A stretch of DNA of 52,818 nucleotides from a virus (IMGVR_UViG_3300033153_006359:1-52818); one strand, 5' to 3'; numbered from the stretch's first letter, positions 168 through 51,572 are shown. A program made the numbers and translations. The notes: generated by a model from the sequence alone, not told the origin.

Positions 168-475
168 ACTGGAGTGGAGAAGAGAGGAGAGAGGGGGAGA
201 GGGAACCTAGGAATTGTGGGGATACCTGCGATGAACATGGTATCTTAGCTAATGATGTGAAGTGGATAAGGAATCTAATGGTAGGAGGCTTTACCTTAGT
301 CCTCTCAGCTGTAGTCTATTTTAACATAGCTCTTACTGAGGGTATCAAGGAGATACATGATGAGGTAGTAGCTACAAACTCAGCGTTCCTAAAGAAGAGT
401 ATGGAACACGATTTTGATGTAGCTTCTCTAGCGAATAAAGTAGGTGCTCTGGAGGCTGTTTGTTGTGATAGGTAA
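161..475 (+). CDS. single-TM membrane protein, holin/spanin-like
   Basis: One TM segment (LMVGGFTLVLSAVVYFNIAL); lies next to a lipoprotein gene at the end of the tail module. Confidence 0.45.
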   Translation: MVDWSGEERREGEREPRNCGDTCDEHGILANDVKWIRNLMVGGFTLVLSAVVYFNIALTEGIKEIHDEVVATNSAFLKKSMEHDFDVASLANKVGALEAVCCDR

Positions 476-824
476 GTATAATACTCTAGAGGTCTGTGTT
501 AAGGCTACGGATAAGGCAGGCCAGTGGATAGTGACAGAGGGTATACTCTACAGAGGGATACAGGTTCATGTGGGGCAACTCACTGATGGAGCTAGTATCC
601 CTCTCTTCCTCAGAGGGTTAATACCTAAGGGAGGGCCCTTGTTCTGTCCAGCTGTAATCCATGATACAGCCTACCGTAACGGTCTATTGACTAGAAAGCA
701 GTGTGATGGGCTCTTCCTAAGGGCGATGGAGGATAATCACGTTAATATAGTGAGAAGGAAGATAATATATAGAGCGGTAAGGATCTTCGGCTCCTCTGCT
801 TATAATAAAGAGGAAGACAGATGA
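465..824 (+). CDS. DUF1353-family phage protein
   Basis: TDGASIP...PAVIHDTAY...RKQCDGLFLRAM...IYRAVRIFG pattern; GTG start after GGAGG. Confidence 0.75.
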   Translation: MIGKYNTLEVCVKATDKAGQWIVTEGILYRGIQVHVGQLTDGASIPLFLRGLIPKGGPLFCPAVIHDTAYRNGLLTRKQCDGLFLRAMEDNHVNIVRRKIIYRAVRIFGSSAYNKEEDR

Positions 825-855
825 TATATAAGAAACTTGTAAGGGAGTACAGCTT

Positions 856-2046
856 ATGAACGTAGCACTCACAGTGCCTCCTGTAGCGGGAGCAGTTAAT
901 AATGGGGGGTCTGCTCCAGCAAATGATCCGACTCAACCTGTAGACCCTACAGCGGAGTTACAAGATAGAATAGGGTCCCTAGAGACACAGCTAGCGTACT
1001 CACAGAGTACTAGTCAAGCTAATACTGACGCTTGGAATACAGAGAGAGAGGGTATGCTCACTGATGCTGAGCAGGCTAAGATTACCTCAGAAGGTGCACT
1101 CTCCACATCTCAAGCAGAGACAGCTAGTGCACAAGCAGCTGCAGATGCAGCAGGCCTCTCCCTCGCTGAGTGGCAGGAACGTAACCTTGGTGTAGAGGGT
1201 AAGAGGACTACGTACGATGAGGCTGCTACTAAGGCTGGAGAGGCACAGGATGCCCCAGACTATGCAGGCGTAGATGTAAGTGGTGTAGATACACCAGAGT
1301 TCGATAGATACGATGAGAGTGGTCAGAGTAAGTATATAAGAGATAGTGAGACTGTCAGAGGACAGCTTACAAGCCTACTGGATACAGATAGTAAGTACCT
1401 TGAGCAAGCACGTATCAAGGCGAGAGAAGGGGCACAAGGTAGAGGCATGCTGAATACTAGCGTAGCAGCTGGTGCTGCTGAGCAAGCTGCTATACAAGAG
1501 GGCTTTAAGATTGCAAGCCAAGATGCTAAGGCCTATTCAGATAGTGGCTTGCTGACACAGCAGTCTGCTGATGAGGCAGCTAGTGATGTACACAAGACAG
1601 AGCTTAATAGTGCACTGACGATACAAGAGGCTGGTATAGCTCACCAGAATAAGCAGCTGGACAATGCCTTCCAGGTAGCTGTGAAGGGAATGGATACAGA
1701 GCAGCAAGTACTCTTCAGTGCAGTACAGGATCAGTACAATACTAATCAGGCACAGATTAAGGCTAAGATAGATAAGGACTTACTGACTATGGATCATGAT
1801 AGTAAGACTAAGTTAGCTGCACAGAGTTCCTTTAATACTATCCTTGTAAACGACAGTATGACATGGGAGAAGATGATGCTGGATGGAACTATACAGGAGC
1901 TGATGGCTACTAATCCGGCAGCAGTGAATGCACTATACGATAACCTGCACACGCAGACAGTCAACAAGCTGACCTTTACAGCTAACTCTCTGAATCTTAA
2001 TATGACTAACCAGATAGATGCGATAGCTCTAGGCTTCGGTATATAA
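856..2046 (+). CDS. putative virion protein, Ala/Gln-rich coiled coil
   Basis: 396-aa ORF with SD; helical composition; precedes ejection-protein cluster. Confidence 0.55.
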   Translation: MNVALTVPPVAGAVNNGGSAPANDPTQPVDPTAELQDRIGSLETQLAYSQSTSQANTDAWNTEREGMLTDAEQAKITSEGALSTSQAETASAQAAADAAGLSLAEWQERNLGVEGKRTTYDEAATKAGEAQDAPDYAGVDVSGVDTPEFDRYDESGQSKYIRDSETVRGQLTSLLDTDSKYLEQARIKAREGAQGRGMLNTSVAAGAAEQAAIQEGFKIASQDAKAYSDSGLLTQQSADEAASDVHKTELNSALTIQEAGIAHQNKQLDNAFQVAVKGMDTEQQVLFSAVQDQYNTNQAQIKAKIDKDLLTMDHDSKTKLAAQSSFNTILVNDSMTWEKMMLDGTIQELMATNPAAVNALYDNLHTQTVNKLTFTANSLNLNMTNQIDAIALGFGI

Positions 2047-2459
2047 TGAAGGAAGCTACTATACTAGATCTGGGTGAGATAGCAGATATTATGAGTGCGT
2101 ATGAGGGTAGAGATTGCTATGAGTACGTTGGTCATACTCTTAGGGAGCCTACCTTCCACTGGTTCTTCTCAGAGAGATTGAATAGTGCAGTGCTGTATGT
2201 ACCAGAGGATAATGATAGGTACCAGATACACATCTATGGTACTGGCACTGGATCCTCTCTAGCGAAGTTCTCCATTAAGACAGGAGCGTATATGCTAGAC
2301 TTAGGAGCACGTACACTAATCAACTGGGTACGAGAGGATCAGCTACAGTTACGCTTGTTCATGCGTATGATCAAGGCACATAGAGTAGCTAATGTAAATG
2401 GTGAGATACTATATGCTCACACACAAGACGATAGAGAAAGAATGATGGAGGTTATATAA
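2046..2459 (+). CDS. GNAT-fold-like protein (T7 gp13-like position)
   Basis: N-terminus KEATILDL resembles GNAT start; size and position before ejection proteins. Confidence 0.4.
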   Translation: MKEATILDLGEIADIMSAYEGRDCYEYVGHTLREPTFHWFFSERLNSAVLYVPEDNDRYQIHIYGTGTGSSLAKFSIKTGAYMLDLGARTLINWVREDQLQLRLFMRMIKAHRVANVNGEILYAHTQDDRERMMEVI

Positions 2460-3250: not shown

Positions 3251-4332
3251 TGGCTACAGTAACCCCAGAGAGAGTAGCTACTGGTTCCGGTAGGACTGAT
3301 AGAGGCGGTAGAGATACGATAACTCAAGGTACATCCAGAGGAGACAGAGGTGGTGTACTTGGTGGAGATAAGAATACATCTACGAATTATAGGAAGGACT
3401 TAGGCTTCGTCACAGATGATCAGCAGTACGCAGGGATACTTAAGAGTAATGCAGAGTTCGATAGTGCTATCAGCTCTTCTCAAGGTACTGTAGATGCTGC
3501 TCAAGGTGAGTTAGATACTAAGAGGGATGAGGCTGTCTCTGCACTCGGTGGTGGTAACTCTATAGCAGCAACAGAGTTCAGAGACCTCTTTAAGAAGCCA
3601 GCAGGTTTAACATCCAGTATGACTTCGCTAGAGAGAATCGGTACTGATGTAGCTCAGTGGAATGAGAAGGTCTTTGGCGGAGGGGCCACCAGTGTGACCA
3701 CAGGAAGCACTGCACCTACAGCAGCGGATAACGCTATAGCAGCAGCTGATAAGGAGAGGGAGGCTAGGGCAGCAGCAGGTGGTAGTGTCTCTCTAACGGC
3801 TCCAGAGTACAATGCTATCAATGCATACAAGAGGGCAGCCCAGAACGTCATACCTGTCAACGTGTACTCAGGGGAGACTGGTGCACTAGAGACAACTATA
3901 AATATGAATAGAGAATTGCTGCATACTCTAGCAGTTAAGTCCTTCCATGGTATGGACAATACATTCCAAGGCTTCTATAAGGATAAGGATGGTAAGGTGA
4001 CTACAGATCCTCTTAAGGCTACTGGGTACCATATCTCCGGTCATATCCCTGAGGCTGGTATCAATATGAATAAGGAGCTGTACGAAGGACTGCAGTACGC
4101 TAATGATACATGGAGGCGTGGGTACCTTATTAAGGCACTAGAGAGTAGCACAGAGGCCTACAATACATCTGTGTCTTCTATAGAATCTGGATACGCTACA
4201 GAGATGGAAGGTATCAATGAGGCACAGGGTTTAATTACTGCAGCTACAGATGATAGACGAGCAGAGTTCGATCAATACAAGAGCAGACACCAGAGAAGAT
4301 TGCAAGGTCTCTCAAATCTGATGGGAGCATAA
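3250..4332 (+). CDS. putative internal virion protein
   Basis: 360-aa ORF, TAATG-coupled in the ejection cluster. Confidence 0.5.
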   Translation: MATVTPERVATGSGRTDRGGRDTITQGTSRGDRGGVLGGDKNTSTNYRKDLGFVTDDQQYAGILKSNAEFDSAISSSQGTVDAAQGELDTKRDEAVSALGGGNSIAATEFRDLFKKPAGLTSSMTSLERIGTDVAQWNEKVFGGGATSVTTGSTAPTAADNAIAAADKEREARAAAGGSVSLTAPEYNAINAYKRAAQNVIPVNVYSGETGALETTINMNRELLHTLAVKSFHGMDNTFQGFYKDKDGKVTTDPLKATGYHISGHIPEAGINMNKELYEGLQYANDTWRRGYLIKALESSTEAYNTSVSSIESGYATEMEGINEAQGLITAATDDRRAEFDQYKSRHQRRLQGLSNLMGA

Positions 4333-5032: not shown

Positions 5033-6003
5033 GTGCATTAGGTGGAATCCTCTCGGTTATGTCGGGAGCAGGTACAGGGTATAATGAGGCCCTGCAGAGA
5101 CAATATGATCAACAGCAGAAGTCCCAGGAATCACAGCTACTCGCTGAGAGAGCGACAGCTATGGAAGAGCTACGTGCTAAGAACCAGATGGATAGGACTA
5201 AGTACACTACAGATGCTAGTGGAGTACAAAGGGAGTCTGATAGAATCTCTAGAGAAGGACAAGCTAAGCTGAATAGAGAGGCAACAGCCAGTAATATACA
5301 GACGAGAGCTGATGTTAACTTGCAAGCAGGTAAGGATCTCGAAGATTATAAGATGGAGAATATCCAAGAGTGGACTGTTAAGAAGGCTGATGCTAACTTT
5401 GAGGCTGCTGATAAGATGATCGAGAAGAACTTAGAAGCTAAGGGGCTAGAGAAAGGCACAGCAGAGTTCGAGCAGGCTAAGCAAGATATCTATAATAAGA
5501 ATAAGGAGTCCTTAACAGAGGAACAAAGAGCAGACTTAAAGATGAAAGCAGGTACACTAGCTCAAAAGTTTATTAAGGAGGATCCTGATTGGGTAGAGAA
5601 GAAGGCTAAGGAGTACGCCCGAAAGTACCCTGAGATATACGGGAAAGATGCTGTGCCTACAGAGGATCAAGTACTCGGGCACTTTGCTGATAGCATGATG
5701 CTTACTAAGGGTTTTGAGGTAGCTGGCTCAGGGCCTGTGAGACCAGCAGGACAGAGTGAGGTTGACGTAGCTATCAAGGCAGTTCAAGCTGGTGATGAGA
5801 AGGTGGCAGAGGAACAGTTAGCAACTCGTATTGGTGCTAAGAAAGCTAAAGAGGTCTTCGATCAAGCTAAGAGAACAGAGGCTGTATCAGGAGCTACCTT
5901 AACTAGAAGAGAGCTACCTATGACAGAACGTAAGAGTGGAAGTGGTACGCTTAGTACACCTGAGGAAGAGGCTGGTGTACTCCAGAAGTGGGAGGTACAA
6001 TAA
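5029..6003 (+). CDS. internal virion/DNA ejection protein
   Basis: MSALGGILSVMSGAGTGY start then long Q/E/K helical region. Confidence 0.6.
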   Translation: MSALGGILSVMSGAGTGYNEALQRQYDQQQKSQESQLLAERATAMEELRAKNQMDRTKYTTDASGVQRESDRISREGQAKLNREATASNIQTRADVNLQAGKDLEDYKMENIQEWTVKKADANFEAADKMIEKNLEAKGLEKGTAEFEQAKQDIYNKNKESLTEEQRADLKMKAGTLAQKFIKEDPDWVEKKAKEYARKYPEIYGKDAVPTEDQVLGHFADSMMLTKGFEVAGSGPVRPAGQSEVDVAIKAVQAGDEKVAEEQLATRIGAKKAKEVFDQAKRTEAVSGATLTRRELPMTERKSGSGTLSTPEEEAGVLQKWEVQ

Positions 6004-6004
6004 T

Positions 6005-9000
6005 ATGGCAGTAGATTACTATAGTTACTTAGATACAGGGGAGTCAGAGGTTGAGTCTTCTGACTCCCCTGATTACTTTGGATACCTTGATACAGAGAAG
6101 AAGGAAGAGGAAGCTGCTAAGGGTTTGAGTTGGACTGATGATAGTAGGGGCTTCTTCTCTGACTTCGCTAGTGAGGTATGGAGAAGTACTGGGAGTGCTC
6201 TCGAGAGTACAGGTAGAGGTATAGAGACTTTCTCTGGTGGAGAGTATGGAGAGGGCCTACGTAATGCTGGTGAGTGGATCCAAGGTACTGAGTATGCTAA
6301 GCAGGATTATGAGGAAGCTACAGGACAAGAGGGGGCTATTAAGACCTTCGCTAGAGATGTTGTAGGTACTATTACAGAGTCCTTCGTAGGCACTGGTACA
6401 GCAGCTGCTGTAGGTGGAGCTATCTCCGGAGGTAATCCCTTCGTAGCAGGTGCAGCAGGACTTGCTCAGTTAATCACACAGTTCGGTGGCGGTACTTACT
6501 CTGAGTTGATGGAGACTGGTGCAGCAGAGGGGCTCTCTGGTGAGCAGTTACATACATACGCTAAGAACGGAGCCCTCTGGGAAGTCATACCAGAGCTAGG
6601 TGATCAGATAGTCACAGTACTCTCAGCAGGTTTACTTGGCCCAGCGATGAAGGGTGGACGTAAGGCGTTACAAGCTGCTCTTAAGGCAGGCACCATCTCT
6701 GCTGATGATATAGTGAAGGGTATAGCTAAGGCAGAGGCTAAGGCTGGCTATAAGGCTGTAGCTGGTTCAGCTGTACTCGGTGGTACCACTGAGGTAATCA
6801 CATCTCTCGGTCAAGGGTACGAGAGGGAGAAGGTAGGTCTTGAGAAGCATGATGAGAACTATGCACGTACATGGTTACTCGGTGCTGTATCCTCTGGTGG
6901 GCCTGCTGTACTGGGTAGAGCTTATGTTAACAGTGAGAATAAGAAGAGAACTACGCAGGAGCTAAGAGTACTCAATAGTGATAATGCAGAAGTACGTACT
7001 ATAGCTGCTGAGAACATATACTCTAAGATAGAGTCTGTAGATAAGGAGTCTGCTGAGGACTTCCTCACAGTCGCTAAGGAGTCTATAGAGCAGGGTGTAC
7101 CTATTGATACCTCCGCTACATTTACAGCCCTCTACGAGGACGCTAGCACTGCACGATTGAATGCTGAGTGGACAGCTAGAGAGGAGGCTCAAGAGGTACG
7201 AGCTAATAAGCCAGAGGAGCTGCTAGACGATCGGAGTACTAATGAGGTACTGGAGAAAGAGATGGAACTCGCTAGCGAGGAGCAGATTAAGCAGGAGTCC
7301 CTCATCCTCTTTGATGAGTTGCAAGGTAAGAGAAGAGTACAGGAGAAGGAAGATAGCTTACGAGCGGAGCAGGCAAGAGGACAACTAGGTACAAAGTATG
7401 CTACCGTAGAACCTACAGCTAGAGATGATCAGGAAGCACTAACACGTACATACGATCCAGAAGTACCTGGAGAGGGGCCCACAGAGGCCCAGAGGATCAG
7501 CAGAGGACAAGCTGTACCCAGTGATATTAGCTCAGCAGTACCTTATGTACCTGCTGGTAGAACTAGACCCTTAGTACCTAAGGATGCTCATGAGAGAACT
7601 ATATCTTACTGGTCTCAGCCTAGAGAGACTAGAGAGATGCAAGCGGATGCACCAGAGGTGCCAGTGGAGAACTTCAGTGCTGCTATAGAGAGAGTAAGCC
7701 CTGTCCATAAGACTGCACTGATACAAGCCGCAGGTGAGATAGAGTCTAAGAAGGCTGAGTTAGAGCAAGCTACTACTATTGATGAGATAGATGAGAAGCA
7801 TAATGAGATAGATAAGCTTACGAAGAAAGTAGATAAGGTAGTACAGAAGGCTGTACCTGCAGAGGAGCTTGAGCAATTAGCTAAGGTAGCAGAGGAGCAG
7901 GAGGCTGTATCTTATACAGCTGCTGATGAGATAGATGTAGTTCCGGAGGAGATGGAAGAGGATACAAAGGTACTACCAGAGATCTATGAGAATGAGAAGG
8001 GAGAACAGGTAGAGACTCTTGAGAGTACAGAGATAGGCTCTATCGAGGTAGAGTATAATAAGGAGACAGGGAAGCAGAAGGGTAGCCGTTTCATAGTAAC
8101 TCTCAAGGAGACTGGAGAGGAGATAGTAGTGCGTGGTCGCTCTGCTGCTGATGAGATACTGAGGACTGGACAGAGACCAGAGGTAGTAAGGACTAAGGGT
8201 ACTAAGAAGGTATCTAAGGCTGATAGAGCTAAGTTAATCGGTAAGCTTACAGAGCTGGAGGAGAGTGTAGTAGATTATCTCTCTAGTGCCTTTAACCCTA
8301 AAGGAGATGTATATAAGTATATAGCTATAAAGAATCAAGTACTTCTTAATAGAGGTAAGAATGTTAATGTAAGTGATTATACTGATAAGTCTATAATTGC
8401 TGATGCTAAGCAGTTGAGTAGGAAGGTAGCTACATCACAGAGTGAGATGAAGGCTGCTAGTGAGGCAGGCTTCGGAGGCTCTGGTGCTCCGTTGTCCTCT
8501 CTAGAGAAGGAAGATGGGGCTCCAGTTGAGGATAGCTATATCTCAGATACCGAGTATGGTGCTCGTACAGATGAGGGTAAGGAGCAAGACCAAGGAGAGC
8601 TTACGGAGGAGCAGCAAGTACAAGAGGAAGGTGCAGTAACAGATACACAGGAACTTGCTACTACAGAGGAAGAGCAGGCTACAACTGAAGGTGCACCTAC
8701 TAGATCTACAGCTACAGTAGAGAAGGAACATACTCAGGAGAAGGGTAAGCGTAAGAGGTTCGTAAGCCCAGCGGGTGCTGACTACCATATCAGTGAGGGG
8801 CTTGATCAAGTCTACAGGATTGAGAGTGAGCTTACTGATAGTGGCAGGAAGTATAAGGGTAAGCCTATTATGGTAGCTAAGCAGGCTCTTAAGGATGCAG
8901 ATGGGAATACCGTAGGAACCTTTAATACTATTGAGGAAGCAGCAGGATCCATAGGTGCCAGTGTAGGTGAGAGGGATGTACAGGACTTCGATCTAGATCA

Positions 9001-13642: not shown

Positions 13643-13864
13643 TTAACTAGTTTGGTCATAGTCTACTCTTAGTCCTCTTATCTCTCTAGAGAAGTGCATG
13701 ATTATCTCCTCTAGCTCCTCATCCGTATAGCTATTAAGACTCCGCATGTTCCCTACGTAGAATTGGATAGATACCTTAGCTCTATCCAGCTTATCCATCG
13801 CCTTAATCTCTGGGTGTATCCAGTAAATCTCCATACTCTGATCCTCCGTATACACCTTCACCAT
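13643..13864 (-). CDS. hypothetical protein
   Basis: ORF in a tightly packed minus-strand cluster. Confidence 0.45.
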   Translation of the reverse strand: MVKVYTEDQSMEIYWIHPEIKAMDKLDRAKVSIQFYVGNMRSLNSYTDEELEEIIMHFSREIRGLRVDYDQTS

Positions 13865-37732: not shown

Positions 37733-37760
37733 ACTATATTACCGGTGGAATAACAGTCTA
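37733..37760 (-). promoter_or_regulatory. candidate early sigma70-type promoter
   Basis: TAGACT-N16-TATAGT, same spacing and -10 as the 30225-30252 promoter. Confidence 0.35.
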
Positions 37761-37972
37761 AGTGTACAGAATCACTATACTCTCTAGCGAAGGGTGGCTT
37801 ACTTTATGGAGGGGGTGGGGGCCTTTGGGGTTTCGTATGTAGGCCCGTCAGATGTGGAGGGTACCCACACTCTCCACAAGGATATATTCAGGAACTTACA
37901 TAGAACCCTAAGCTATAGTCAACAGATCTACAGGATACAGTGATAACTCGTGAGTGTACCCCCTCAAGGAAC

Positions 37973-38100
37973 CTTAAGGACTCCTTAAGAACTACTCCTT
38001 AAGACTTCCTTAAGCTATTCTTACCAACTACTACTATAGACTACTCTTAAGGATATACTTAAGCCCTCCTTAAGTATAGAGATACAGCTGCCTGCTTAAG
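37973..38100. repeat. cluster of 8 CTTAAG short repeats upstream of the terminase genes
   Basis: CTTAAG at 37973, 37984, 37998, 38009, 38046, 38058, 38069, 38095. Confidence 0.8.
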
Positions 38101-38158
38101 TATATACTAGATTGTAGCTAAGTGATAGCTTCCTAACCAAACTCAAGAGGAGCAAGGA

Positions 38159-43986: not shown

Positions 43987-45006
43987 ATGGCTATTCGTGG
44001 CGGCGGAAGTGATTCCGCATATGATTCAGGTAATGCAACTGGGTATATCCCAGAATTATTCTCAAAGAAGATGCTTGTTAACTTCTTCGAGGTAACTTTA
44101 TTTAAGCAGATTGCTAACACCGATTACCAGGGTGAGATTACTGGTATGGGCGATAAAGTAAATATCGCTACAACCCCAGCTATCGCTATCACTGACTATG
44201 TCATTGGTACTGATATGAATACTGAGGTGCCTACCTCGAATTCTCTGCCTCTGGCGATTGATCAAGGTAAGTACTGGAACTATAAGATTGATGATATTGA
44301 TCTTGTACAGACCCACTTGAACCTGCTTAATGCCTTCGCTAGCGAAGCTGGTGAGCAGATGGCACAGACCATCGATACTGATATTCTGCACTATATCACT
44401 CTTAAAGGTTATGCTACTGCCGTACTTGCTGTTGCCGGTACTGGTGTAGCTGCTGATAGTGATAACTGGGGTGCAGCTGCTGGTGCTGTCTCTGGTGATA
44501 TCGATCTTGGTGCTGAGTATACTACTGCATCTGGTGATAATGCTCTTGCTCCATCTGTAGATACAGCTGGTACTACGATGCATGATTACATCATTGATGC
44601 TAATCTGGTACTCGATGAGCAGAATGTAACTAAGAGTAACCGCTGGATCGTACTCCCTGCATGGGCATGTGCAATGCTTAAGCGTGGTGACCTGAAGCGA
44701 GCTGATGTAACTGGCGATTCTACTGGTGTCATCCGTAATGGTCTCATTGGTGAGATCGATGGGATGCAGGTATACAAGAGTAATAACGTCTTCAACGCTA
44801 CCGAGGATGGTGGTACTGGTGATGATGTAGAGCTCTTCTACTGCCCCTTCGGTACAAAAGAAGGCTTGACCTTCGCCTCTCAGCTCGTTAAGTCTGAGAG
44901 TATCCGTATGGAGAAGCAGTTCGGTGATATCTTCCGTGGACTCAATGTCTTTGGTAGAGCTGTAGTTCAGCCTACCTCCATCGGAATGATGATTCTTAAG
45001 AAGTAG
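43987..45006 (+). CDS. major capsid protein (P22/T7-like HK97 fold)
   Basis: IPELFS, NTDYQGEI...GDKV.I, LAIDQ.KY.N..IDDID, LDEQNV...RW, G.IGEIDG..VY.SN, FGD..RGL.VFG. Confidence 0.92.
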   Translation: MAIRGGGSDSAYDSGNATGYIPELFSKKMLVNFFEVTLFKQIANTDYQGEITGMGDKVNIATTPAIAITDYVIGTDMNTEVPTSNSLPLAIDQGKYWNYKIDDIDLVQTHLNLLNAFASEAGEQMAQTIDTDILHYITLKGYATAVLAVAGTGVAADSDNWGAAAGAVSGDIDLGAEYTTASGDNALAPSVDTAGTTMHDYIIDANLVLDEQNVTKSNRWIVLPAWACAMLKRGDLKRADVTGDSTGVIRNGLIGEIDGMQVYKSNNVFNATEDGGTGDDVELFYCPFGTKEGLTFASQLVKSESIRMEKQFGDIFRGLNVFGRAVVQPTSIGMMILKK

Positions 45007-45922: not shown

Positions 45923-48426
45923 GTAGAAGAATTAGCTACGCACCGCAGAATAGTAAGGTCATCGAGATGAGGGGGGGTGTGGATGAGAATCTGCAGTCCC
46001 TTCAGCAGTCTCCTGGCACCCTCTTCGAGTGTGAGAACTATATGATAGCTGAGGGTGAGACAGGTGGCTACCGAGTCGTAGATGGTTATGATAGGTACGA
46101 TGGTACAGTTATACCCTCTGAGGTGATGACGTATGTGCTGAAGCTTAAAGGTACAGTTGAAGAGATTAGCAGTGGTGCTAATATTACAGGTGCTGTTGGT
46201 GATGTAGATTCAATAGCAGATTGCGTACTCTTTAGGGCCTTTACTGTAGAGTCTCAGGTTAATACATATCTCTTAGGAGAGGAAGTAAGCTTCGGAGGTA
46301 CAACCGTAGGTACTATTACTGCAATAGATAGTGATGCTATAACTGTACTTATAACCCTAGGCTATACATCACCTACTACTACATTGACTGGTGTATCCTC
46401 TGCAGCTACTAGTACTGTTACAGGCGTAGATGATGCTAGGAGCAGCTGCTCAGTAGAAGTTACAGTGGATGATGATGCCTTTGTAGGTGGAGAGGTACTT
46501 AGTGTATCTGGATCACCTGTAGGTACATACGCTGGATTAGCATACCAACTGCCTAGTACGTATCATCATCAAGCTTACTTAACTGCAAGGTTAGCAGTAG
46601 ATCCTGTTGGCACACCTGATTGTGAGGGTAATGTCTTAGGTATCTGTGTCTTTGAGGAAGAGCTATATGCATTCCGGAAGAAGAATGCACCTACTGATGA
46701 GATAGGTATGTACAAAGCTACAGGATCTAGCTGGGTAGAAGTAGATACCAGTGATGATCCTATATTGTATGGAGCCGGAGATGATGACCATGACTTTAAA
46801 TTTACTGTATATAACTTCTATGCTACAACAGATAGCAAGTCAGTGTACTGGACAGATACTTATAATCGTGCTAGGTCTTATGATGGGACTGTAGTTACTA
46901 CTCTGTACAACTGTGGTATGAGTAAGTTAGCTAATCCGAAGACAGATAGCCTTGAGGATATGGATGCATGCCTACAACTCAGCAAGAGGAAGTATGGTTA
47001 TGCCAACTTAGTAGAGGTACCACTAGATGTAGTGGCTGCTAATGATGCTGGAGATTGGTTAACTATAACCTTCGATCATGCAGATCTCTATGACTTCGTA
47101 GATGTAGAAGGGAACAAGACACTGCTAAGAGTCAATGGTGCAGACTATGAGGTAGGTCAAGTTACCCTAAGTGGATCTGAGACTATCACTATGGTCTTTC
47201 AATTAGAGGCCTCTGTAGCTGTTGATGATGTACTTTATGTATACTATGATGCTACGCAGGAAGTCAATACAGTTACTACTACATCTGCTACTGTAACTAT
47301 AGAAGGTACAGCATTCACTAGAGATCTTACACTGGATCCAAGTGATACAGATAAGCCCATTAATGTAATCGCTAGAGAGAATAGATTATTCTTAGCTTAC
47401 AAGTATGGCTCTCTCCAGTACTCAGCATTAGGAGAGCCAGGGGACTGGTATGGAGTCAATGGAGCTGGTGAGATAGGTTGTGGTAATGAGATTACAAACT
47501 TAGTGCTAGGTACAGGAGGCTCTTTAGTAATCCTTCAAACAGAGGGTATCCTTGCATTAACTGGTAGGACTCCTCTAGAGTGGCAGATAGAAACCTTTAG
47601 TCCAGTCTCCGGTGCCTTCGAGGGTACAGCTAAGAGACTGCTAGGTACTATCTTCTTCCTTGATGATAGGGGGTTAACTACACTGGAAGCTACAGATACC
47701 TTTGGTGACTTCGCAGCTAATAGTATTAGTGAGAAGTTTAAGAAGACCCTCTTTGAGAATAAGGATAATATAAGCTCTGTAGTGGTCAGTAGAGATCTCA
47801 ATCAGTACCGTATCTACTTTGATAATGGCTATGGTATCTACGTATCCTTTAAGGCTAAGGAGCTGCAGGGAGCTACCTTTATCAAGTTCCCTATCGCAGT
47901 TACTAAGACAGCAGAGGGTGAGGTCTCAGGTTCTCAAACTCTATACTTCGCTAGCGAAGATGTAGCTAATGGCTTAGGAGAGGATATAGAAGGCTACGTA
48001 TTCAAGATGGACTCTGGGCCTAATTTTGACTATGAAGAAGTCTACAGTAAGCTAGGTACTACGTACTATCACTATGGTTCCCCTAGGAACTGGAAGAGAT
48101 TTATCAGCGCTATGCTAGAAGGTCATCTAGCTTACAATCAAGAGTATAGTGTGAAGGTGGACTTCGATTATAATAGTAGTGCTCTACCGACTACACAGTG
48201 GCAGACAGGTACAGATGATGAGGGCATGCAAGGTGGTATATATGGCGATGGTACCTATGGAGAGGCTATCTATGGTGCCGGAGCTGTACTAACTCGTGCA
48301 CCTGTGTACTTGACAGGTTACGGGACTAACGCAAGCTTTAAGATTTATATGATGAGTACCTTTAGTACACCCGCTATACTCCAGAACATACTTGTCGACT
48401 ATTTATCCTACTCACGACGAATTTAA
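45919..48426 (+). CDS. tail nozzle / stabilisation protein (tubular B or P22 gp10-like)
   Basis: GGYR.VDGYDRYDG, NRLFLA...SLQYS..GEP..W....GAGEI, TFGDF...SIS, GSPR.WKRF; beta-rich. Confidence 0.8.
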   Translation: MSRRISYAPQNSKVIEMRGGVDENLQSLQQSPGTLFECENYMIAEGETGGYRVVDGYDRYDGTVIPSEVMTYVLKLKGTVEEISSGANITGAVGDVDSIADCVLFRAFTVESQVNTYLLGEEVSFGGTTVGTITAIDSDAITVLITLGYTSPTTTLTGVSSAATSTVTGVDDARSSCSVEVTVDDDAFVGGEVLSVSGSPVGTYAGLAYQLPSTYHHQAYLTARLAVDPVGTPDCEGNVLGICVFEEELYAFRKKNAPTDEIGMYKATGSSWVEVDTSDDPILYGAGDDDHDFKFTVYNFYATTDSKSVYWTDTYNRARSYDGTVVTTLYNCGMSKLANPKTDSLEDMDACLQLSKRKYGYANLVEVPLDVVAANDAGDWLTITFDHADLYDFVDVEGNKTLLRVNGADYEVGQVTLSGSETITMVFQLEASVAVDDVLYVYYDATQEVNTVTTTSATVTIEGTAFTRDLTLDPSDTDKPINVIARENRLFLAYKYGSLQYSALGEPGDWYGVNGAGEIGCGNEITNLVLGTGGSLVILQTEGILALTGRTPLEWQIETFSPVSGAFEGTAKRLLGTIFFLDDRGLTTLEATDTFGDFAANSISEKFKKTLFENKDNISSVVVSRDLNQYRIYFDNGYGIYVSFKAKELQGATFIKFPIAVTKTAEGEVSGSQTLYFASEDVANGLGEDIEGYVFKMDSGPNFDYEEVYSKLGTTYYHYGSPRNWKRFISAMLEGHLAYNQEYSVKVDFDYNSSALPTTQWQTGTDDEGMQGGIYGDGTYGEAIYGAGAVLTRAPVYLTGYGTNASFKIYMMSTFSTPAILQNILVDYLSYSRRI

Positions 48427-48437: not shown

Positions 48438-49922
48438 ATGATGGCATACTATACACAACCAGCACAGAAGCAGGATGGGGAGACTATCTTTGCTGCTGAC
48501 GTTAATGATCTTGGTGATGCAGCTGCAAACGCATTCGCTCAAGTAGATACAGATATGCAGGGTCAGCAAACTCTTGTAGAGAGTTATGCGGCTGCAGCAA
48601 GTGATTCAGCAGATGCTGCTGGTGACTCTGCATCAGCAGCCAGCGGCTCTGCAGTAGATGCCAGTGACTTCACAGATAAGGCTCAAGAGTGGGCAGAGAA
48701 TGCTGAGGATGTAGAAGTAGAGACTGGAGAGTACTCAGCACTACATCACAGTGCTAAGGCAGCACTTGCACAGGCCTCCGCTGAGAATAGTGCTAGCTTT
48801 GAAGGAGATTGGAGTGCAGGGACGTATACTCAACCAGCTTCCGTCTACCACTCAGACCACTTCTGGAATCTCTTAGTCGCTAGTACGACTGAGGAGCCTA
48901 GTGATGTAGCTACTGATTGGGTACGTACGGATACTGGATATACAGAGGCAGAAGCTGATGCTATTACAGACGCTATAGCTGCTGATGTGGCCCTTTGCTA
49001 CACTAAGACAGAAGCTGATGCAATCACAGACCCTATAGCTGCTGATGTAGCTCTATGTTATACTAAGACAGAAGCTGATGCAATCACCGATACTAAGGCT
49101 GAGGTGATATCTCAAGTCTACATTTATCTTGCAACCACAGGAGATGATGTCACTGGAGATGGTACTGTAGGCTCACCTTGGTATTCTCTAGAGAAGGCTA
49201 TAGATTACCTCGATGATAAGTTCATAGAATACTGTATCATCAGTATTGCTGCTGGAACTTATACAGGGCTGGGACGAGTTCTAATAAAGACACCGCATGC
49301 TAATAGGCTCACTATAGTCGGTGATGATAAAGCTACAACTATCTTGACTTTCACTACAGATGGGATAGATGTTCAAGGGGTTGCTCTCAATTATATATCT
49401 GCACTAACTTTAAAAGGGGTTGATGCAACAAGCAGATCAGGTATATCTGTTAGCGTAGGAGGCTCCATTAGCTCTGTCTCTAATGTAAAGGTTGATACTT
49501 TTGGTACGGGTATAGATGCGAGCGGAGGGAGTGTAGTAGATCTATATTCTGTGGATATATACAACTGCAAGACCGCCATCTACTTAACAGGTAACAGCTA
49601 TCTAGTGAGTAGCTCCACAAGTACTATAGATTGTAACTCATTAGCAAGCTCAATAGGTATAAGAGCCTATGAGGATTGCACAGTCCGGTTTGATAGCTGC
49701 GATATATCAAACGCAGTAGACGCAATAAAGGCAGAGAGGAGTAGTAAGGTGTACGCTGAGTATGTGACTTTCTCAGGGATCACCGGCTATGATGGATGGG
49801 CCCATTCTAATAGTTTTATAAGCGTTAATGGATCAACAGGCGGTACATCCTTCAACCCCGCAGTAACTACTGGTAATGTACCTACATTCTCTAATGCAGG
49901 CTCTTGGATCTATAAACCTTAA
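48438..49922 (+). CDS. tail fibre/spike with beta-helix-like C-terminus
   Basis: Ala/Ser coiled region, YSALH, YTKTE repeats, IYLATTGDD.TGDG...PW...KA, pectate-lyase-like strands. Confidence 0.8.
   Translation: MMAYYTQPAQKQDGETIFAADVNDLGDAAANAFAQVDTDMQGQQTLVESYAAAASDSADAAGDSASAASGSAVDASDFTDKAQEWAENAEDVEVETGEYSALHHSAKAALAQASAENSASFEGDWSAGTYTQPASVYHSDHFWNLLVASTTEEPSDVATDWVRTDTGYTEAEADAITDAIAADVALCYTKTEADAITDPIAADVALCYTKTEADAITDTKAEVISQVYIYLATTGDDVTGDGTVGSPWYSLEKAIDYLDDKFIEYCIISIAAGTYTGLGRVLIKTPHANRLTIVGDDKATTILTFTTDGIDVQGVALNYISALTLKGVDATSRSGISVSVGGSISSVSNVKVDTFGTGIDASGGSVVDLYSVDIYNCKTAIYLTGNSYLVSSSTSTIDCNSLASSIGIRAYEDCTVRFDSCDISNAVDAIKAERSSKVYAEYVTFSGITGYDGWAHSNSFISVNGSTGGTSFNPAVTTGNVPTFSNAGSWIYKP
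48940..49095 (+). repeat. 60-bp (20-aa) tandem repeat, about 2.5 copies
   Basis: EADAITD(A/P)IAADVALCYTKT repeated with synonymous differences. Confidence 0.85.
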
Positions 49923-49923: not shown

Positions 49924-50733
49924 ATGTCTAATAAATACTACACAGCACCGGAAGCTCAATATGATGATCACCTTATCAATATTGAGGTACCACAGGATCC
50001 AGTAGAGGAGGCCTTCGAGTTAGTTGAGGAGGACATAAGCGACCACTTAGCAGACGTAAGTAACCCTCATGGGGTGCCTGTAGAAGATACGCTAATAAAC
50101 CCAAGATTAACTATCAACCAACGGGGCTTTAGTGGCACTTGGTCTTCTATCTCTGATGGTGTATATGGATGGGATAGGTGGAGGAAGGACGGGACGGATA
50201 TGGTACAACCTGTCCGTGAGCAGAACTATGAGTCAGATGCCACGTACTACTTATACGGCACTGGAGTTACTGATACAGAGCTAACTGCTCCATCTAGTGG
50301 AGCATGGGAGATCTCAGTACCTCAGACTGCTACAGAGGTGCATCTAGTACTTGGAGATAAGGAAGTACCAGTTAGGCGTAGATTGTATGAGGAAGAGCTA
50401 GACCTATGCATGGCATACTACAGAGTATTCTCTGGGACAGATATGTGGGCTATGAATGGGACAGCCTCAGTAGGGGATGTGGTATGCATAGTCCTGCCAA
50501 TATCTCCTAAGATGATACAGAACCCATCATCTGTTATTGTGACCAGCTCTTACTCCGTCACTGGTAAGATTACAGAGAGGTTATCTACTGGCGGGACTAA
50601 CCCAGCGTATGATGTGACACCCTCAGCTTTCGTAGTAAAATCGGATATAGCTGTATTAAGGCATGCAACTATAAACGCTGGAACTGTTGGATTTACATTT
50701 GCAACACTTAAGATAGATTCAGAGATATACTAA
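49924..50733 (+). CDS. tail fibre-associated protein
   Basis: HL.D.SNPHGV, LIN....INQRG...YGWDRW, EEL.LC..YY tail-fibre motifs. Confidence 0.7.
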   Translation: MSNKYYTAPEAQYDDHLINIEVPQDPVEEAFELVEEDISDHLADVSNPHGVPVEDTLINPRLTINQRGFSGTWSSISDGVYGWDRWRKDGTDMVQPVREQNYESDATYYLYGTGVTDTELTAPSSGAWEISVPQTATEVHLVLGDKEVPVRRRLYEEELDLCMAYYRVFSGTDMWAMNGTASVGDVVCIVLPISPKMIQNPSSVIVTSSYSVTGKITERLSTGGTNPAYDVTPSAFVVKSDIAVLRHATINAGTVGFTFATLKIDSEIY

Positions 50734-50762
50734 GATAAACGATAGACTACAGGAGAGACACA

Positions 50763-51284
50763 ATGGCTATCAATGAGAAGGTTTGCTCTAAGTGTGGAGC
50801 AGTTAAACCTCTCGGGCATTTCAATAAAGACTCTTCAAAGCCCTCTGGATACTACTCCAGTTGCAGAAGTTGTAATAAAGCTAGAGCTGTAGAATACTCT
50901 TCTCTAAATAGTGCTAAGATTGCCCAACGTGGTATGGATCACTATCTCGCTAATAAGGAGGAGATAAATAAGGCACGTAAAGAGGAGTATAAAGTTCCTA
51001 TTAATTTGTTCAAAAGGTACCAAAGCAGAGTAAAGCATCTCTACGGTATTAGTGCGAACGGTGTGATGGAGTTGATGAATAAGCAAAGAGGTTGTTGTGG
51101 TGTATGTGGTGAATCCTTAGTCTACCCTGATTCAGCTAGGAGCTATTGCATTGACCACGATCATAGTAGTATGTTAGTACGTGGATTACTTTGTCCACTA
51201 TGTAACACAGGCATAGGAGCACTTGGAGATAATCTTAGCTCCTTACAGAAAGCAGTAGAATATTTAAAGAGGACAGAATTATGA
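50763..51284 (+). CDS. Endonuclease VII-type HNH homing endonuclease
   Basis: CSKC...CRSC; QRGCCGVC...IDHDHSS..VRGLLCPLCNTGIG.LGD. Confidence 0.88.
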   Translation: MAINEKVCSKCGAVKPLGHFNKDSSKPSGYYSSCRSCNKARAVEYSSLNSAKIAQRGMDHYLANKEEINKARKEEYKVPINLFKRYQSRVKHLYGISANGVMELMNKQRGCCGVCGESLVYPDSARSYCIDHDHSSMLVRGLLCPLCNTGIGALGDNLSSLQKAVEYLKRTEL

Positions 51285-51526
51285 TTAACGAGACATTAAC
51301 AGGCAGTGACACAAGTGCTACTACGGTACCTACAGAGTCCGTAAGTGAGTTCAGTATAGTAGGGACAGGCAGAGTCATCTTAGAGATGCTCCCACCCTCT
51401 GGGAGTACATGGATCACCTTAAGCAATAGTATGCGTAAGGGATCTCTTAGTACTCCGGATCCAGCTGTAACATACAGGTTCCGCTCAGTGAATGCTACTA
51501 GCGTTACTTGCGTCTTTGGCCCATAA
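51281..51526 (+). CDS. small beta-rich virion-associated protein
   Basis: ATGA-coupled; V.LE......TW...YRF pattern. Confidence 0.55.
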   Translation: MINETLTGSDTSATTVPTESVSEFSIVGTGRVILEMLPPSGSTWITLSNSMRKGSLSTPDPAVTYRFRSVNATSVTCVFGP

Positions 51527-51572
51527 ATGAGACCCTATAAAACTTCTCTAGAGAATATTATAGGAGGACTCT

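Follow-up and report, generated by a model that had tools for sequence, protein, structure and literature searches.

A dispersed palindromic word in a family of uncultured phages as a candidate recognition site for a dimeric phage protein

The closest precedents for a dyad word dispersed through a phage genome are the repeats of Cluster O mycobacteriophages, whose function the published account gives as unknown (PMC4351075), and the stoperators, described as many dispersed sites at which phage repressors are able to stop elongation (PMC9283540). Other reports describe nick motifs conserved across 61 phages (PMC11780129) and phages enriched in binding sites of the host regulator CtrA (PMC9437464). 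The word analyzed here was called undescribed in the initial annotation of the sequence, and literature searches found neither this word nor its phage family described; the novelty does not extend to the type of element, since the Cluster O report presents similar dispersed dyad repeats.

The window, i.e., the whole stretch of DNA that was analyzed, is a phage record of 52,818 nucleotides (IMGVR_UViG_3300033153_006359:1-52818). Its dinucleotide biases are extreme (AG/CT 1.53, AA/TT 0.66, CG 0.42, TA 1.25), and it avoids GCGC (1 copy) and CGCG (0 copies). The word TCKCTAGMGA occurs 46 times, against 0.97 copies expected and at most 3 found in dinucleotide shuffles, and read backwards as a control it occurs 0 times. 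Shuffling synonymous codons within genes yields a mean of 6.2 copies (largest 12 in 500 shuffles), permuting codons 3.4 (largest 7), an order-3 Markov model 0.6 and an order-5 Markov model 7.4 (largest 17 in 200 runs). The excess is thus real and confirmed against every null model used, including the codon-shuffled and order-5 Markov nulls that the initial annotation had proposed as a check. That annotation had been built on the 11-mer TTCGCTAGAGA, whose 26 copies (12 on the plus and 14 on the minus strand; 100 dinucleotide shuffles give an expectation of 0.05 and never more than 1) and their coordinates all hold on recount, and the four copies of TTCGCTAGCGAA, the three of TTCTCTAGAGAA and the 13 "variants" it listed separately are all included in the 46.

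The word had been described as a quasi-palindrome, and its width needs correction. Specifically, base counts over 92 half-sites reveal a word 14 bp wide with dyad symmetry, in which the base preceding TC is T in 61 and C in 26 half-sites and the next base outward is C in 50 and A in 28. It is also sharp: only 10 one-mismatch variants accompany the 46 exact copies, and 43 of 48 TCG-CTAG half-sites fall within full sites. Inspection of the surroundings bears out the earlier statement that the flanks are unrelated, and the orientation is balanced as claimed, both for the 11-mer (12 vs 14) and for the asymmetric form relative to the coding strand (15:15). Judged from sequence, the dyad symmetry, the sharpness and the lineage-specific drift described below are consistent with a dimeric reader. 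At phase-0 sites, the asymmetric form is favored (21 of 24, Fisher P 6e-4), which runs against a simple homodimer model, as this would favor the symmetric optimum.

Inside ORFs lie 43 of the 46 sites (given here without strand), 24 in phase 0, read as S-L-A/E, and 19 in phase 1, read as x-A/S-R/S-E/D; none of the 43 uses the phase giving an in-frame TAG. On the left, plus-strand ORFs carry sites at 425..434 (TCTCTAGCGA, phase 0; ORF 161-475), 2256..2265 (TCTCTAGCGA, phase 0; ORF 2046-2459), 3625..3634 (TCGCTAGAGA, phase 0; ORF 3250-4332) and 5246..5255 (TCTCTAGAGA, phase 1; ORF 5029-6003). The 2076-aa ORF 5936-12166 (+) holds five, at 6348..6357 (TCGCTAGAGA, phase 1), 7269..7278 (TCGCTAGCGA, phase 1), 8498..8507 (TCTCTAGAGA, phase 0), 10904..10913 (TCGCTAGAGA, phase 0, aligned with a site of relative B) and, in its final codons, 12153..12162 (TCTCTAGCGA, phase 1). 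Minus-strand ORFs follow, with sites at 13683..13692 (TCTCTAGAGA, phase 1; ORF 13643-13864), 14137..14146 (TCTCTAGCGA, phase 0; ORF 14009-14167) and 14543..14552 (TCTCTAGAGA, phase 1; ORF 14473-14742). The ribonucleotide reductase gene (14932-17013, -) contains 15866..15875 (TCTCTAGAGA, phase 1) and 16464..16473 (TCTCTAGCGA, phase 0), the latter encoding S-L-E where relative B has V-L-S within a conserved block. Further sites in minus-strand genes are 17930..17939 (TCTCTAGCGA, phase 1; RNA ligase part 17848-18537), 20063..20072 (TCGCTAGAGA, phase 0; ORF 19875-20087), 21463..21472 (TCGCTAGAGA, phase 0; ORF 21380-21880), 22310..22319 (TCTCTAGCGA, phase 1; GIY-YIG gene 21877-22440), 23096..23105 (TCTCTAGAGA, phase 1; ORF 22828-23259) and 25567..25576 (TCGCTAGAGA, phase 0; sigma-like gene 25394-25924). 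The DNA polymerase gene (25924-27837, -) carries TCGCTAGAGA in phase 0 at 26487..26496 and 27516..27525, and the primase-helicase gene (27995-29650, -) has two phase-0 sites, 28492..28501 (TCTCTAGCGA, aligned with a site of relative B) and 29185..29194 (TCGCTAGAGA).

Still on the minus strand, 30522..30531 (TCTCTAGCGA, phase 0; ORF 30454-30978) and 31138..31147 (TCGCTAGAGA, phase 1; ORF 31038-31256) precede 31896..31905 in the DNA ligase gene 31342-32364 (TCTCTAGCGA, phase 0, aligned with a site of relative B). The MoxR-type AAA gene (32364-33455, -) contains 32552..32561 (TCGCTAGAGA, phase 0, again aligned with a site of relative B), 32764..32773 (TCGCTAGAGA, phase 1) and 33190..33199 (TCGCTAGCGA, phase 1), and the vWA (CobT-like) gene (33467-35302, -) contains 34384..34393 (TCTCTAGCGA, phase 0), 34833..34842 and 35073..35082 (both TCGCTAGAGA, phase 1). 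Small early ORFs of the same strand carry 35622..35631 (TCGCTAGCGA, phase 0; ORF 35548-35718), 35774..35783 (TCTCTAGCGA, phase 0; ORF 35715-35882) and 36082..36091 (TCGCTAGCGA, phase 1; ORF 36024-36173), and TCTCTAGCGA lies in phase 0 both in the early ORF 36163-36468 (36315..36324, -) and within the candidate reader gene (36704..36713). Plus-strand sites resume in the portal gene 40401-42707 (41301..41310, TCTCTAGCGA, phase 0), the capsid gene 43987-45006 (44336..44345, TCGCTAGCGA, phase 1), ORF 45919-48426 (47369..47378, TCGCTAGAGA, and 47948..47957, TCGCTAGCGA, both phase 1) and ORF 48438-49922 (49185..49194, TCTCTAGAGA, phase 0). A non-coding site, 51545..51554 (TCTCTAGAGA), lies 19 bases upstream of ORF 51573-52178.

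At S-L-E sites, the synonymous serine codon is the rare TCG in 11 of 13 cases (P 3e-8), against genome-wide counts of 319 TCT and 53 TCG. Because the word is read in two codon phases and draws on a rare codon at a synonymous position, selection acts on the DNA and not on the peptide, as the initial annotation had argued. Its further claim that the word is not a mobile repeat is likewise borne out: peptides encoded by the sites are matched by ordinary residues in orthologues, so the word is not a mobile insert, and the orthologue alignments contain no indels at the sites. Conservation of site codons is not significantly lower than that of other codons (42.3% vs 47.2% identity, P 0.2), and a protein cost of writing the sites is therefore not demonstrated overall.

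The core TCTC-YR-GAGA recurs at 1 per 1-3 kb in at least nine related uncultured phages that are syntenic with the present genome and whose TerL is 33-63% identical; the family looks virulent. G001 has 26 copies of the word, the complete genome G011 (57.6 kb) 30, G008 20, G010 10, G009 6 and G012 3, with 0 copies of the backward-read control in each, and G002, G003, L282, L284, L285 and L286 are further word-bearing relatives. The core is constant as the lineages vary in the flank base (Y in A and B, G in G011 and C, C in L286) and in the center, from CTAG through CCAG/CTGG to CCGG. Two more distant relatives, L288 and L289, have other dyad words, and three related phages, L176-L178 (TerL 55-57% identical), have no such word, so the site system is dispensable. 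By these comparisons, the palindromic word is a family trait of this phage group.

Orthologue alignments, another check proposed at the outset, reveal both conservation and turnover. In genome pairs of 84% nucleotide identity, 9 of 13 (P 0.01) and 9 of 10 (P 4e-4) sites are kept, compared with 34% of control windows, and the same positions are kept in records that come independently from different samples. At 50-60% protein identity, 4 of 32 sites of the present phage are shared with relative B. Read from the alignments, short-range retention is purifying selection, and individual sites turn over at greater distance. Comparison with random placements in seven phages reveals unusually even spacing in three. 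Evenness is significant in G001 (CV 0.52, P 2e-4), G002 (CV 0.45, P 6e-4) and G008 (CV 0.52, P 0.001) and not in G003, G011, G009 and G010. In the present phage, the CV is 0.71 (P 0.01) overall and 0.44 over 1-31.5 kb, where 0 of 5000 random placements were equally even. The early arm at 31.5-38.2 kb has the highest density in the genome (14 sites, mean gap 453 bp), a pattern compatible with regulation and with a coat alike.

The candidate reader is the product (195 aa) of the first gene of the leftward early arm (36540..37127, -), a role suggested by its co-occurrence with the word, the position of its gene and a homodimer prediction. An HMM of this early protein matches all word-bearing genomes whose record includes the early region and 0 of the other loci searched, and its family has 95 representatives among 1.84 billion proteins searched. 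This co-occurrence may simply mark one clade, and the MoxR/vWA and replication genes are as universal in word-bearing genomes as the early gene. The protein is acidic (pI 5.3; family median 5.5) and has no Pfam or PHROG match and no sequence relative among solved structures. Its AlphaFold2 model is all-alpha (pLDDT 90.7), with 0 fold matches in the two libraries searched, PDB and BFVD. The homodimer prediction scores 0.80, against 0.00 for the best of three controls; this mark was attained by 20 of the 30 proteins whose solved form is a pair and by 1 of the 23 whose solved form is a single chain. Three runs have at least 96% of contacts in common, with partner pLDDT of at least 89.

The available data are compatible with a model, to which we assign a probability of about 0.5, in which the word is recognized by a two-fold symmetric, sequence-specific, probably phage-encoded protein that acts as a self-mark or coat of the genome, with the early gene as its candidate source. 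We infer that some protein binds the word, which protein this is and what its binding effects; the reader is most likely encoded by the phage and co-evolves with the site. Through the recoding of genes, selection would maintain numerous exact copies at a density of about one per 1-2 kb, such that single sites are replaced over time and overall number and spread are maintained. The early protein would be produced first, bind operator-like single and paired sites flanking its own gene and also occupy gene-internal sites chromosome-wide, placing a bound dimer on every 1-2 kb of phage DNA. An operator-like layout is seen in the complete genome G011, in which 8 of 30 sites lie outside called ORFs, six of these in DNA flanking the early gene, and two pairs are spaced at 24 bp, one adjoining that gene. 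These dimers would shield or organize the phage genome rather than exert classical promoter control. If so, the virus marks its own chromosome through dozens of copies of a word written into its genes.

A possible but doubtful alternative gives the same reader a different purpose, transcription control, with operators and stoperator-like roadblocks inside genes through which an early or middle protein shuts off early genes and damps transcription genome-wide. Elongation stops at dispersed sites have a precedent in the published stoperators (PMC9283540), and site density peaks in the early arm and the inter-arm non-coding DNA. The 24-bp pairs of G011, one of them beside the early gene, also suit this reading; the dyad words of L288 and L289 are mostly found just upstream of early-region gene starts. 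However, the sites have no orientation bias relative to transcription (15:15), they occur in late structural genes, for which high expression is required, and they follow distance rather than gene or operon, with five in one 6.2-kb gene and none in about 44 of 79 ORFs. Neither an integrase nor any other sign of lysogeny was detected, and a sigma-70 consensus scan returned fewer promoter-like sites than in shuffles. Replication signals, i.e., places at which the T7-type primase-helicase would preferentially prime or load, with a palindrome working on both strands, are quite improbable. The primase-helicase is present in all word-bearing genomes with the replication region in the record, mean spacing is 1.1-2.2 kb with low variance, which is the size of Okazaki fragments, and the G011-type word often begins with GTGTC, a preferred T7 primase site. 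Yet the words of the present phage and relative B contain no GTC, known primases require only 3-5 bases, and non-coding clusters, 24-bp pairs and the 150-450 bp spacing of the early arm do not suit priming.

It is unlikely that the word is the target of a DNA-acting enzyme of phage or host, be it nicking (compare T5, tf and Rembedalsseter), modification or a restriction-like nuclease. A sharp exact word resembles enzyme specificity, restriction-type recognition typically has K/M and Y/R degeneracy, a chemical step on one strand could explain the preference for a single CG-bearing half, and the phage has ligase, RNA ligase, a conserved GIY-YIG nuclease, HNH genes, dUTPase and a nucleotide kinase. 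The published nick motifs are asymmetric and confined to a single strand (PMC11780129), in contrast to the present word, a dyad oriented 12:14. Searches of 4-5 records per family found no C5, N6/N4 or D12 methylase, no ParB_N domain and no tyrosine integrase (G011 was included for N6/N4, D12 and integrase), and no nuclease is common to all word-bearing genomes, GIY-YIG and HNH genes being undetected in genome C. Restriction targets are normally avoided, as GCGC and CGCG are here, rather than enriched, and a target alone leaves selection for many evenly spaced copies unexplained. Equally unlikely is a word of the host, either a regulator or nucleoid-protein site that is exploited or titrated, or a copied genome word of the HIP1, uptake-sequence or Chi type. 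Domain searches did not reveal any convincing DNA-binding domain encoded by the phage, differences in host could underlie the lineage-specific variants, and enrichment of phages in host CtrA sites is published (PMC9437464). Against this, the host-genome search suggested at the outset found none rich in the word: the 16-mer form has 29 copies, never two per genome, in 185,579 prokaryote species (one genome each; the host may be absent), and the one MAG that includes a related terminase contig shows no enrichment (70/61 vs control 70-odd). Chi and uptake sequences are moreover asymmetric and oriented, and related phages of similar composition lack the word, making a host-genome source unlikely on these sequence comparisons. 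Close to refuted is a word without function, a by-product of codon or peptide usage, of mutation or repair bias, or of assembly or library construction. The dinucleotide biases of the genome and the outer part of the G011-type word, which resembles the terminus of the Tn5 mosaic end used in library preparation, speak for it. Codon-preserving, codon-permuting and order-5 Markov nulls giving 3-7 copies vs 46, two codon phases, positions kept between independent records, absence of indels, even spacing and few one-mismatch neighbors (10) speak against it.

Next to the candidate reader gene, the divergent early and late arms are separated by a non-coding interval of about 1 kb (37128..38158, no strand). 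It contains two sites, 37349..37358 (TCTCTAGAGA) and 37781..37790 (TCTCTAGCGA), as well as eight copies of CTTAAG clustered at 37973-38100.

The window carries 46 copies of the word TCKCTAGMGA where strict null models place 3.4 to 7.4, so that the genome-wide excess claimed in the initial annotation holds. Specifically, permutation of codons yields 3.4 copies, synonymous-codon shuffling within genes a mean of 6.2 and at most 12, and an order-5 Markov chain, which already includes the hexamers of the word itself, 7.4 and at most 17; dinucleotide shuffles give 0.97. The 11-mer TTCGCTAGAGA alone occurs 26 times against an expectation of 0.05, and the control pattern, which is the word read backwards, does not occur. 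The balanced orientation described at the outset is likewise confirmed, with 12 copies of the 11-mer on the plus strand and 14 on the minus strand, and the mixed form of the site, which combines a half with CG (TCG) and a half without it (TCT), is oriented without regard to the coding strand (15:15) or to its place in the genome. Nearly all sites lie inside ORFs (43/46), where 24 are read as S-L-A/E and 19 as x-A/S-R/S-E/D, and none in the phase that would give a TAG stop.

The word is sharply delimited. One-mismatch variants number only 10 in the window, and 43 of its 48 TCG-CTAG half-sites belong to full sites. Since the half-site extends two bases further, as M-Y-T-C-K-C-T, the full word is a 14-bp dyad. 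Its halves are paired as TCG/TCT in 31 cases, TCT/TCT in nine and TCG/TCG in six, an excess of mixed pairs over independent choice of halves (P 0.012). This preference is clearest in synonymous codon choice: sites read as S-L-E use the serine codon TCG 11 times and TCT twice, compared with 319 TCT and 53 TCG genome-wide (P 3e-8), and sites read as S-L-A, in which the other half already bears the CG, use TCT ten times and TCG once (Fisher P 6e-4). Phase-1 sites, with nine mixed and ten symmetric copies, have no such preference. Outside the word, TCTAGA (11 copies) and GCTAGC (12 copies) are not avoided, and escape from six-base restriction sites is therefore insufficient to account for the preference for a single CG half.

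Relatives of the window were gathered through searches with the polymerase, terminase alignments, the 14-mer form of the word and a MoxR alignment. Phage B, represented by G001 and G002, records that overlap with 99.6% identity, is 61% identical to the window in terminase and 51% in polymerase; G001 holds 26 copies of TCKCTAGMGA, 22 of them as TCTCTAGAGA, and no backward control. Phage C (G003/G004), with a terminase 44% identical to that of the window, carries 21 copies of GTCTC-YR-GAGAC, whose centres are the asymmetric CCAG/CTGG in 12 cases, CTAG in eight and CCGG in one. The scan with the 14-mer led to G011 (record 3300013099_000003), whose genome is complete at 57,585 bp, ends in direct repeats of 123 bp, has 30 sites and would be suitable as a reference for the family, and to four further records, G008 (20 sites in 32.5 kb), G010 (10), G009 (6) and G012 (3); backward controls were zero in all five. 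Through MoxR, four more loci were found: L282 (9-10 sites) and L284 (same record as L253), both of the CCAG type, L285 with five copies of GTCTCCGGAGAC against 0.01 expected, and L286 with 17 copies of TCTCTAGAGA, mostly in the form TCTCTCTAGAGAGA.

All word-bearing relatives are syntenic with the window, with terminases 33-63% and portals 41-54% identical, and the 10-bp core TCTC-YR-GAGA is thus kept across strongly diverged proteins. The base outside this core is Y, G or C depending on the lineage, and the centre goes from CTAG to CCAG/CTGG to CCGG. Two more distant phages with the MoxR/vWA gene pair bear words of their own, namely nine copies of CTTCTSAGAAG in L288 (3300037424_001012) and eight of GTAACA-N0-1-TGTTAC in L289 (3300033148_001052), each against 0.02 expected and mostly located 15-45 bases 5' of start codons in the early region. 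Each L288 site pairs one CG-bearing half with a different half. The other relatives, of which 11-20 kb each was covered and which include L176-L178 (terminase 55-57%), have no dispersed word; apparent other words in L017, L176, L177 and L178 are local tandem repeats. L178 belongs to a relative of 75 kb. Such repeats dominate the word counts at L177 4230-4299 (10-base unit), L178 1-190 (38-base unit, at the record end) and L017 13385-13500. Additionally, in the word-less L177 (7896-10247) and L178 (3550-5901) the match to the terminase large subunit is interrupted by about 870 bases, possibly owing to an intron, an intein or a gene insertion.

Alignment of orthologues indicates that sites are held over short distances and relocated over long ones. 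Between phage C and L282, which are 84% identical in DNA over 18 kb, 9/13 sites of the former are still sites in the latter and 9/10 in the opposite direction, compared with 34% of control windows in which no change affects the same ten positions (P 0.01 and 4e-4); at the kept sites the centre toggles among CTAG, CCAG and CTGG, including one flip from CTGG to CCAG. Between the window and B, only 4 of the 32 window sites in shared genes occupy the same aligned position. The site peptides align with ordinary residues of the B orthologues, as in ribonucleotide reductase, where S-L-E of the window stands at the position of V-L-S in B within a conserved block, and the three or four of the 32 sites that face alignment gaps are all in poorly aligned stretches. 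With unrelated flanks and no insertion relative to orthologues, the earlier statement that the word is not a mobile repeat is borne out, and an in-frame mini-repeat of the MITE or RPE type is rejected. Amino-acid identity is 42.3% at site codons and 47.2% elsewhere, a cost that is not significant (P 0.2).

The copies are also more evenly spaced than random placement predicts, with a coefficient of variation (CV) of 0.71 in the window (P 0.01) and 0.44 over its first 31.5 kb (positions 1-31.5 kb), an evenness reached by none of 5000 placements. The same holds for G001 (CV 0.52, P 2e-4), G002 (0.45, P 6e-4) and G008 (0.52, P 0.001), and the test was not significant in G003, G011, G010 and G009. 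Sites are densest in the early arm and the non-coding centre, with a mean gap of 453 bp at 31.5-38.2 kb, and sparsest in the late arm, where the mean gap is about 2 kb. In G011, 8 of the 30 sites lie outside called ORFs, six of which flank the first early gene on both sides, and two pairs of sites are 24 bp apart. G011 has its terminal repeats in the late arm, so that the region of dense sites is not a chromosome end.

The genome in which the word is embedded is that of a phage with a T7-type replication set. The record is linear, with an estimated completeness of 89%, and encodes a family A DNA polymerase, a primase-helicase, a Gp2.5-like single-strand binding protein, a 5'-3' exonuclease and a DNA ligase, together with ribonucleotide reductase, dUTPase and a nucleotide kinase, a GIY-YIG gene, and a late module of terminase, portal, P22-type capsid protein and tail genes. 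A MoxR-type AAA gene (AAA_5 and CbbQ_C) lies beside a CobT-like vWA gene (32364-35302), and a sigma-like protein of 176 residues (25394-25924; phrog_1740, E 6e-9), encoded between the single-strand binding protein and polymerase genes, has a counterpart in B with 26% identity. The genes form two arms, one leftward (about 13-37 kb) and one rightward, which diverge from roughly 1 kb of non-coding DNA at 37.1-38.2 kb; in G011, about 2.2 kb of mostly non-coding DNA separates the arms, and the early arm contains a radical-SAM gene. Searches of the window found no tRNA and no Rfam family, megablast with 20 kb of it matched no cultured phage, and the nearest cultured phages by capsid and primase-helicase protein are at most 37% identical.

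All word-bearing genomes have in common the replication core, the MoxR/vWA pair and the product of the first leftward early gene, which in the window is a protein of 195 residues (36540-37127, minus strand) and the candidate reader of the word. An HMM of this early protein matches every genome with TCTC-YR-GAGA whose early region is present in the record (the window, B, C, G011, G008, L253/L284, L282, L285 and L286), and it matches none of 172 terminase-related loci, neither L288 nor L289, and not the word-less L177 and L178, of which 7 kb upstream of the terminase genes was covered. The family is small: a search of 1.84 billion proteins yielded 95 representatives with E no higher than 0.001, and in the Atlas it falls into unnamed viral clusters only. 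Its members share the conserved stretch K-x-G-x-x-K-W-S-S-W...T-x-R. AlphaFold2 gives a confident all-alpha model (pLDDT 90.7, pTM 0.69) for which a fold search returned nothing below E 0.1 in BFVD (best E 0.17) and a best E of 3.5 in the PDB; by sequence there was no relative among solved structures, the HMM giving helical-bundle noise only. As a homodimer, the protein is predicted to form an intertwined symmetric pair with a score of 0.80, compared with 0.00 for the best of three controls, a level that 20 of 30 proteins with paired solved structures attain and 1 of 23 with single-chain structures; the three runs agree in at least 96% of contacts, with partner pLDDT of at least 89, and this modelling supports pairing of the early protein. 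Just upstream of the early gene, G011 has a conserved 50-residue ORF (40218-40370) that is also present in G008, L285 and L286.

Counting against a role as reader, the early protein is acidic (pI 5.3; family median 5.5), and its co-occurrence with the word may only mark a clade. As a first early, acidic protein it could equally be an anti-defence factor, which is why it is named here as a candidate reader only. The MoxR/vWA pair is another candidate. Each phage found to bear a dispersed dyad word has it, L288 and L289 included, and the 7 kb that precede the terminase gene in the word-less L177 showed no copy of it. MoxR also served to find some of the word-bearing phages, which biases this association, and neither protein has a family match in its N-terminal part (120-280 and about 400 residues). 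Several further proteins were considered and set aside. The TerS-like helix-turn-helix protein (38159-38959) was rejected as the favoured reader: it also occurs in D, a word-less lineage, and has no called ORF in G011. For the small basic protein of the early region (35715-35882) and similar proteins of B and C, a ribbon-helix-helix identity received no Pfam support even at E up to 10. The three HNH genes of the Endonuclease VII type (18515-18997, 24211-24759 and 29640-30194) were rejected as partners of the word, since neither B nor C has an orthologue of them; the GIY-YIG gene, for its part, went undetected in C.

Taken together, the reading that fits best is that the word is recognised by a symmetric DNA-binding factor peculiar to these phages, given the sharp 14-bp dyad that purifying selection keeps exact, the specificity that drifts by lineage, the operator-like pairs next to the conserved early gene and the fairly regular intragenic copies. 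For the function of such a factor we favour a marking, coating or organising role over promoter control, because the sites are spread over the whole genome by distance in a phage without signs of lysogeny. One specific and tentative form of this, with a probability of about 0.3, is that these uncultured virulent phages possess a two-part self-marking system. Its first part would be the early-made homodimer, whose fold has no solved relative, and its second the co-evolving 10-14 bp dyad word, which selection would have written into the genes of the phage itself, spaced roughly like Okazaki fragments. When occupied, the array would act as an identity tag that tells phage DNA from host or rival DNA, or as a coat that shields it against processive host enzymes—a protein-based counterpart of Chi or of base hypermodification. 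The sister lineages with CTTCTSAGAAG or GTAACA-N0-1-TGTTAC might follow the same idea with swapped specificity.

A roadblock role like that of stoperators comes as a close second. Stoperators are sites of 13-14 bp, mostly intergenic, that are read by the monomeric immunity repressor of a temperate phage. In Cluster A mycobacteriophages of the L5 type, they are described as asymmetric and oriented with transcription (PMC9283540). Like stoperators, the word provides tens of exact sites across a whole genome (46 over 52.8 kb), and a specificity that evolves together with the reader would be a further shared feature. Unlike them, it is dyad-symmetric, unoriented (15:15) and located inside genes, and the family yielded neither a repressor-type domain in the ORFs scanned nor a tyrosine integrase in five records including the complete G011.

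An enzyme target, a host factor, a priming signal and neutral bias are less well supported. As a restriction-modification target the word is not supported: C5, N6/N4 and D12 methylases were not found in four or five records per family (N6/N4 and D12 searches including the complete G011), and the word is enriched rather than avoided. A word of the host itself has a precedent in HIP1 of cyanobacteria, a host-chromosome word linked to a methyltransferase that is intragenic in several frames and maintained at the DNA level. It is also palindromic and hugely over-represented (PMC6604393). The word of the window resembles HIP1 in being palindromic, over-represented, intragenic in more than one frame and maintained at the DNA level, but no prokaryotic genome rich in it was found and no methylase was found in the phages. 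The search of candidate hosts proposed in the initial annotation was run on one genome each of 185,579 prokaryote species and on one metagenome-assembled genome (MAG), and it produced no word-rich genome: the 16-mer GTGTCTCTAGAGACAC occurs 29 times among the species genomes, never twice in one, and the true host may lie outside this set. The MAG, from Zixibacteria, contains a related 2.1-kb terminase contig and was rejected as host, its word counts of 70/61 comparing with 74/68 for controls.

Among known systems, dimeric readers that organise, silence or position DNA are exemplified by KorB-OB of IncP plasmids, Noc-NBS, SlmA-SBS, MatP-matS and ParB-parS, with folds of the ParB, TetR and RHH types and dispersed, partly intragenic palindromes of 12-16 bp. 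A replicon of 60 kb to 4 Mb has some 10-70 of them, without an even distribution through its genes. The word shares with them the palindromic site dispersed on a replicon and differs in a far higher density; ParB_N (PF02195) had no match in four records, with a control search matching 11 of 14 genomes. Chi and uptake sequences are asymmetric words with strand or orientation bias, unlike the dyad of the window, which has no polarity along the genome. A nick-associated 9-mer of the Pseudomonas phages tf and Rembedalsseter and of T5 is asymmetric, present in about 9-13 copies on one strand only and concentrated at one side of the genome (PMC11780129). Both words are enriched and conserved across a phage group despite low nucleotide similarity, are mostly intragenic and lack a known function; the word of the window differs in being a dyad with 46 copies in both orientations (12 and 14 for the 11-mer).

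The nearest published description appears to be that of Cluster O mycobacteriophages. Genome-wide, Corndog and its relatives carry more than 30 copies of 17-bp dyad-symmetric repeats of unknown function, which become denser towards one region and are for the most part independent of promoters, about one third of them being coding; these phages have no obvious temperate character, and a dimeric protein is predicted by the authors to bind the repeats (PMC4351075). The window is similar in having more than 30 copies of a short dyad word genome-wide, mostly unlinked to promoters. It differs in word, host group and phage type, Cluster O phages being siphoviruses of Mycobacterium, and in the location of sites, 43/46 in ORFs against about one third coding in Cluster O, for which no even spacing, lineage drift or candidate reader is described. 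No Cluster O phage is among the matches listed for the capsid and primase relatives (at most 37% identity). The initial description of the word as undescribed hence stands for the sequence itself and not for the type of element, since dispersed dyad repeats of Cluster O are already in print. No report of TCKCTAGMGA or of the phage family was found in the literature searched, whose coverage was incomplete, and a literal text search for the word gave only cloning primers among the matches listed.

To our knowledge, dispersed exact words are rare in phage genomes and have a known function for stoperators only. The present case is unusually clean, with a 10-14 bp dyad that is almost wholly intragenic and kept although the proteins have diverged to 30-60% identity. 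Its short-term conservation, long-term relocation and more-than-chance even spacing in several genomes argue for a strong, genome-wide function at the DNA level in a lytic-type phage, invisible to current annotation. Experimental work could start from a defined word, its natural variants (centres CTAG, CCAG and CCGG; flanking T or G), the complete genome with terminal repeats as reference, and a candidate reader for which no fold match was found. Finding the reader and its role could reveal a new viral way to label, protect or organise DNA and might provide orthogonal site-protein pairs as tools.

Apart from the word, the window has a peculiar short-word composition. Base composition predicts about 128 copies each of GCGC and CGCG per strand, where the former occurs once and the latter not at all; AATT stands at 0.22 times expectation, AGCT at 2.6 times and GTAC at 2.2 times. 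Among dinucleotides, AA/TT (0.66) and CG (0.42) are short and AG/CT (1.53) and TA (1.25) in excess, and glutamate is encoded by 1116 GAG and 320 GAA codons. Most of these biases are common to B and C, where further palindromes are absent (ATCGAT and CTGCAG in B, CAGCTG in C). The near-absence of GCGC and CGCG and the scarcity of AATT suggest that the host exerts restriction pressure, and the biases of the three phages as a whole look like restriction avoidance combined with an unusual mutational or codon regime.

The hexamer CTTAAG forms a cluster of eight copies in 130 bp (37973-38100) just upstream of the first rightward gene (38159). It numbers 60 in the whole window against 37.5 in synonymous shuffles and 83 against 33.5 in G001, often as CTTAAGTA, and with ten copies it is not in excess in C. 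Possible readings are an additional, weaker word and an element of late promoters; a scan of 35000-38400 for sigma-70 promoters and terminators gave fewer sites than shuffled sequence. In the late arm, the ORF at 5936-12166 encodes 2076 residues, has five sites and no PHROG match, and its product matches B with 61% identity across 682 residues and G011, G010 and G009 with 24-32%. Finally, the RNA ligase gene of the window (17848-19476) is split into a ligase domain (17848-18537) and an OB-fold part (18979-19476), parted by the HNH gene at 18515-18997, and is a single ORF in C and G008.
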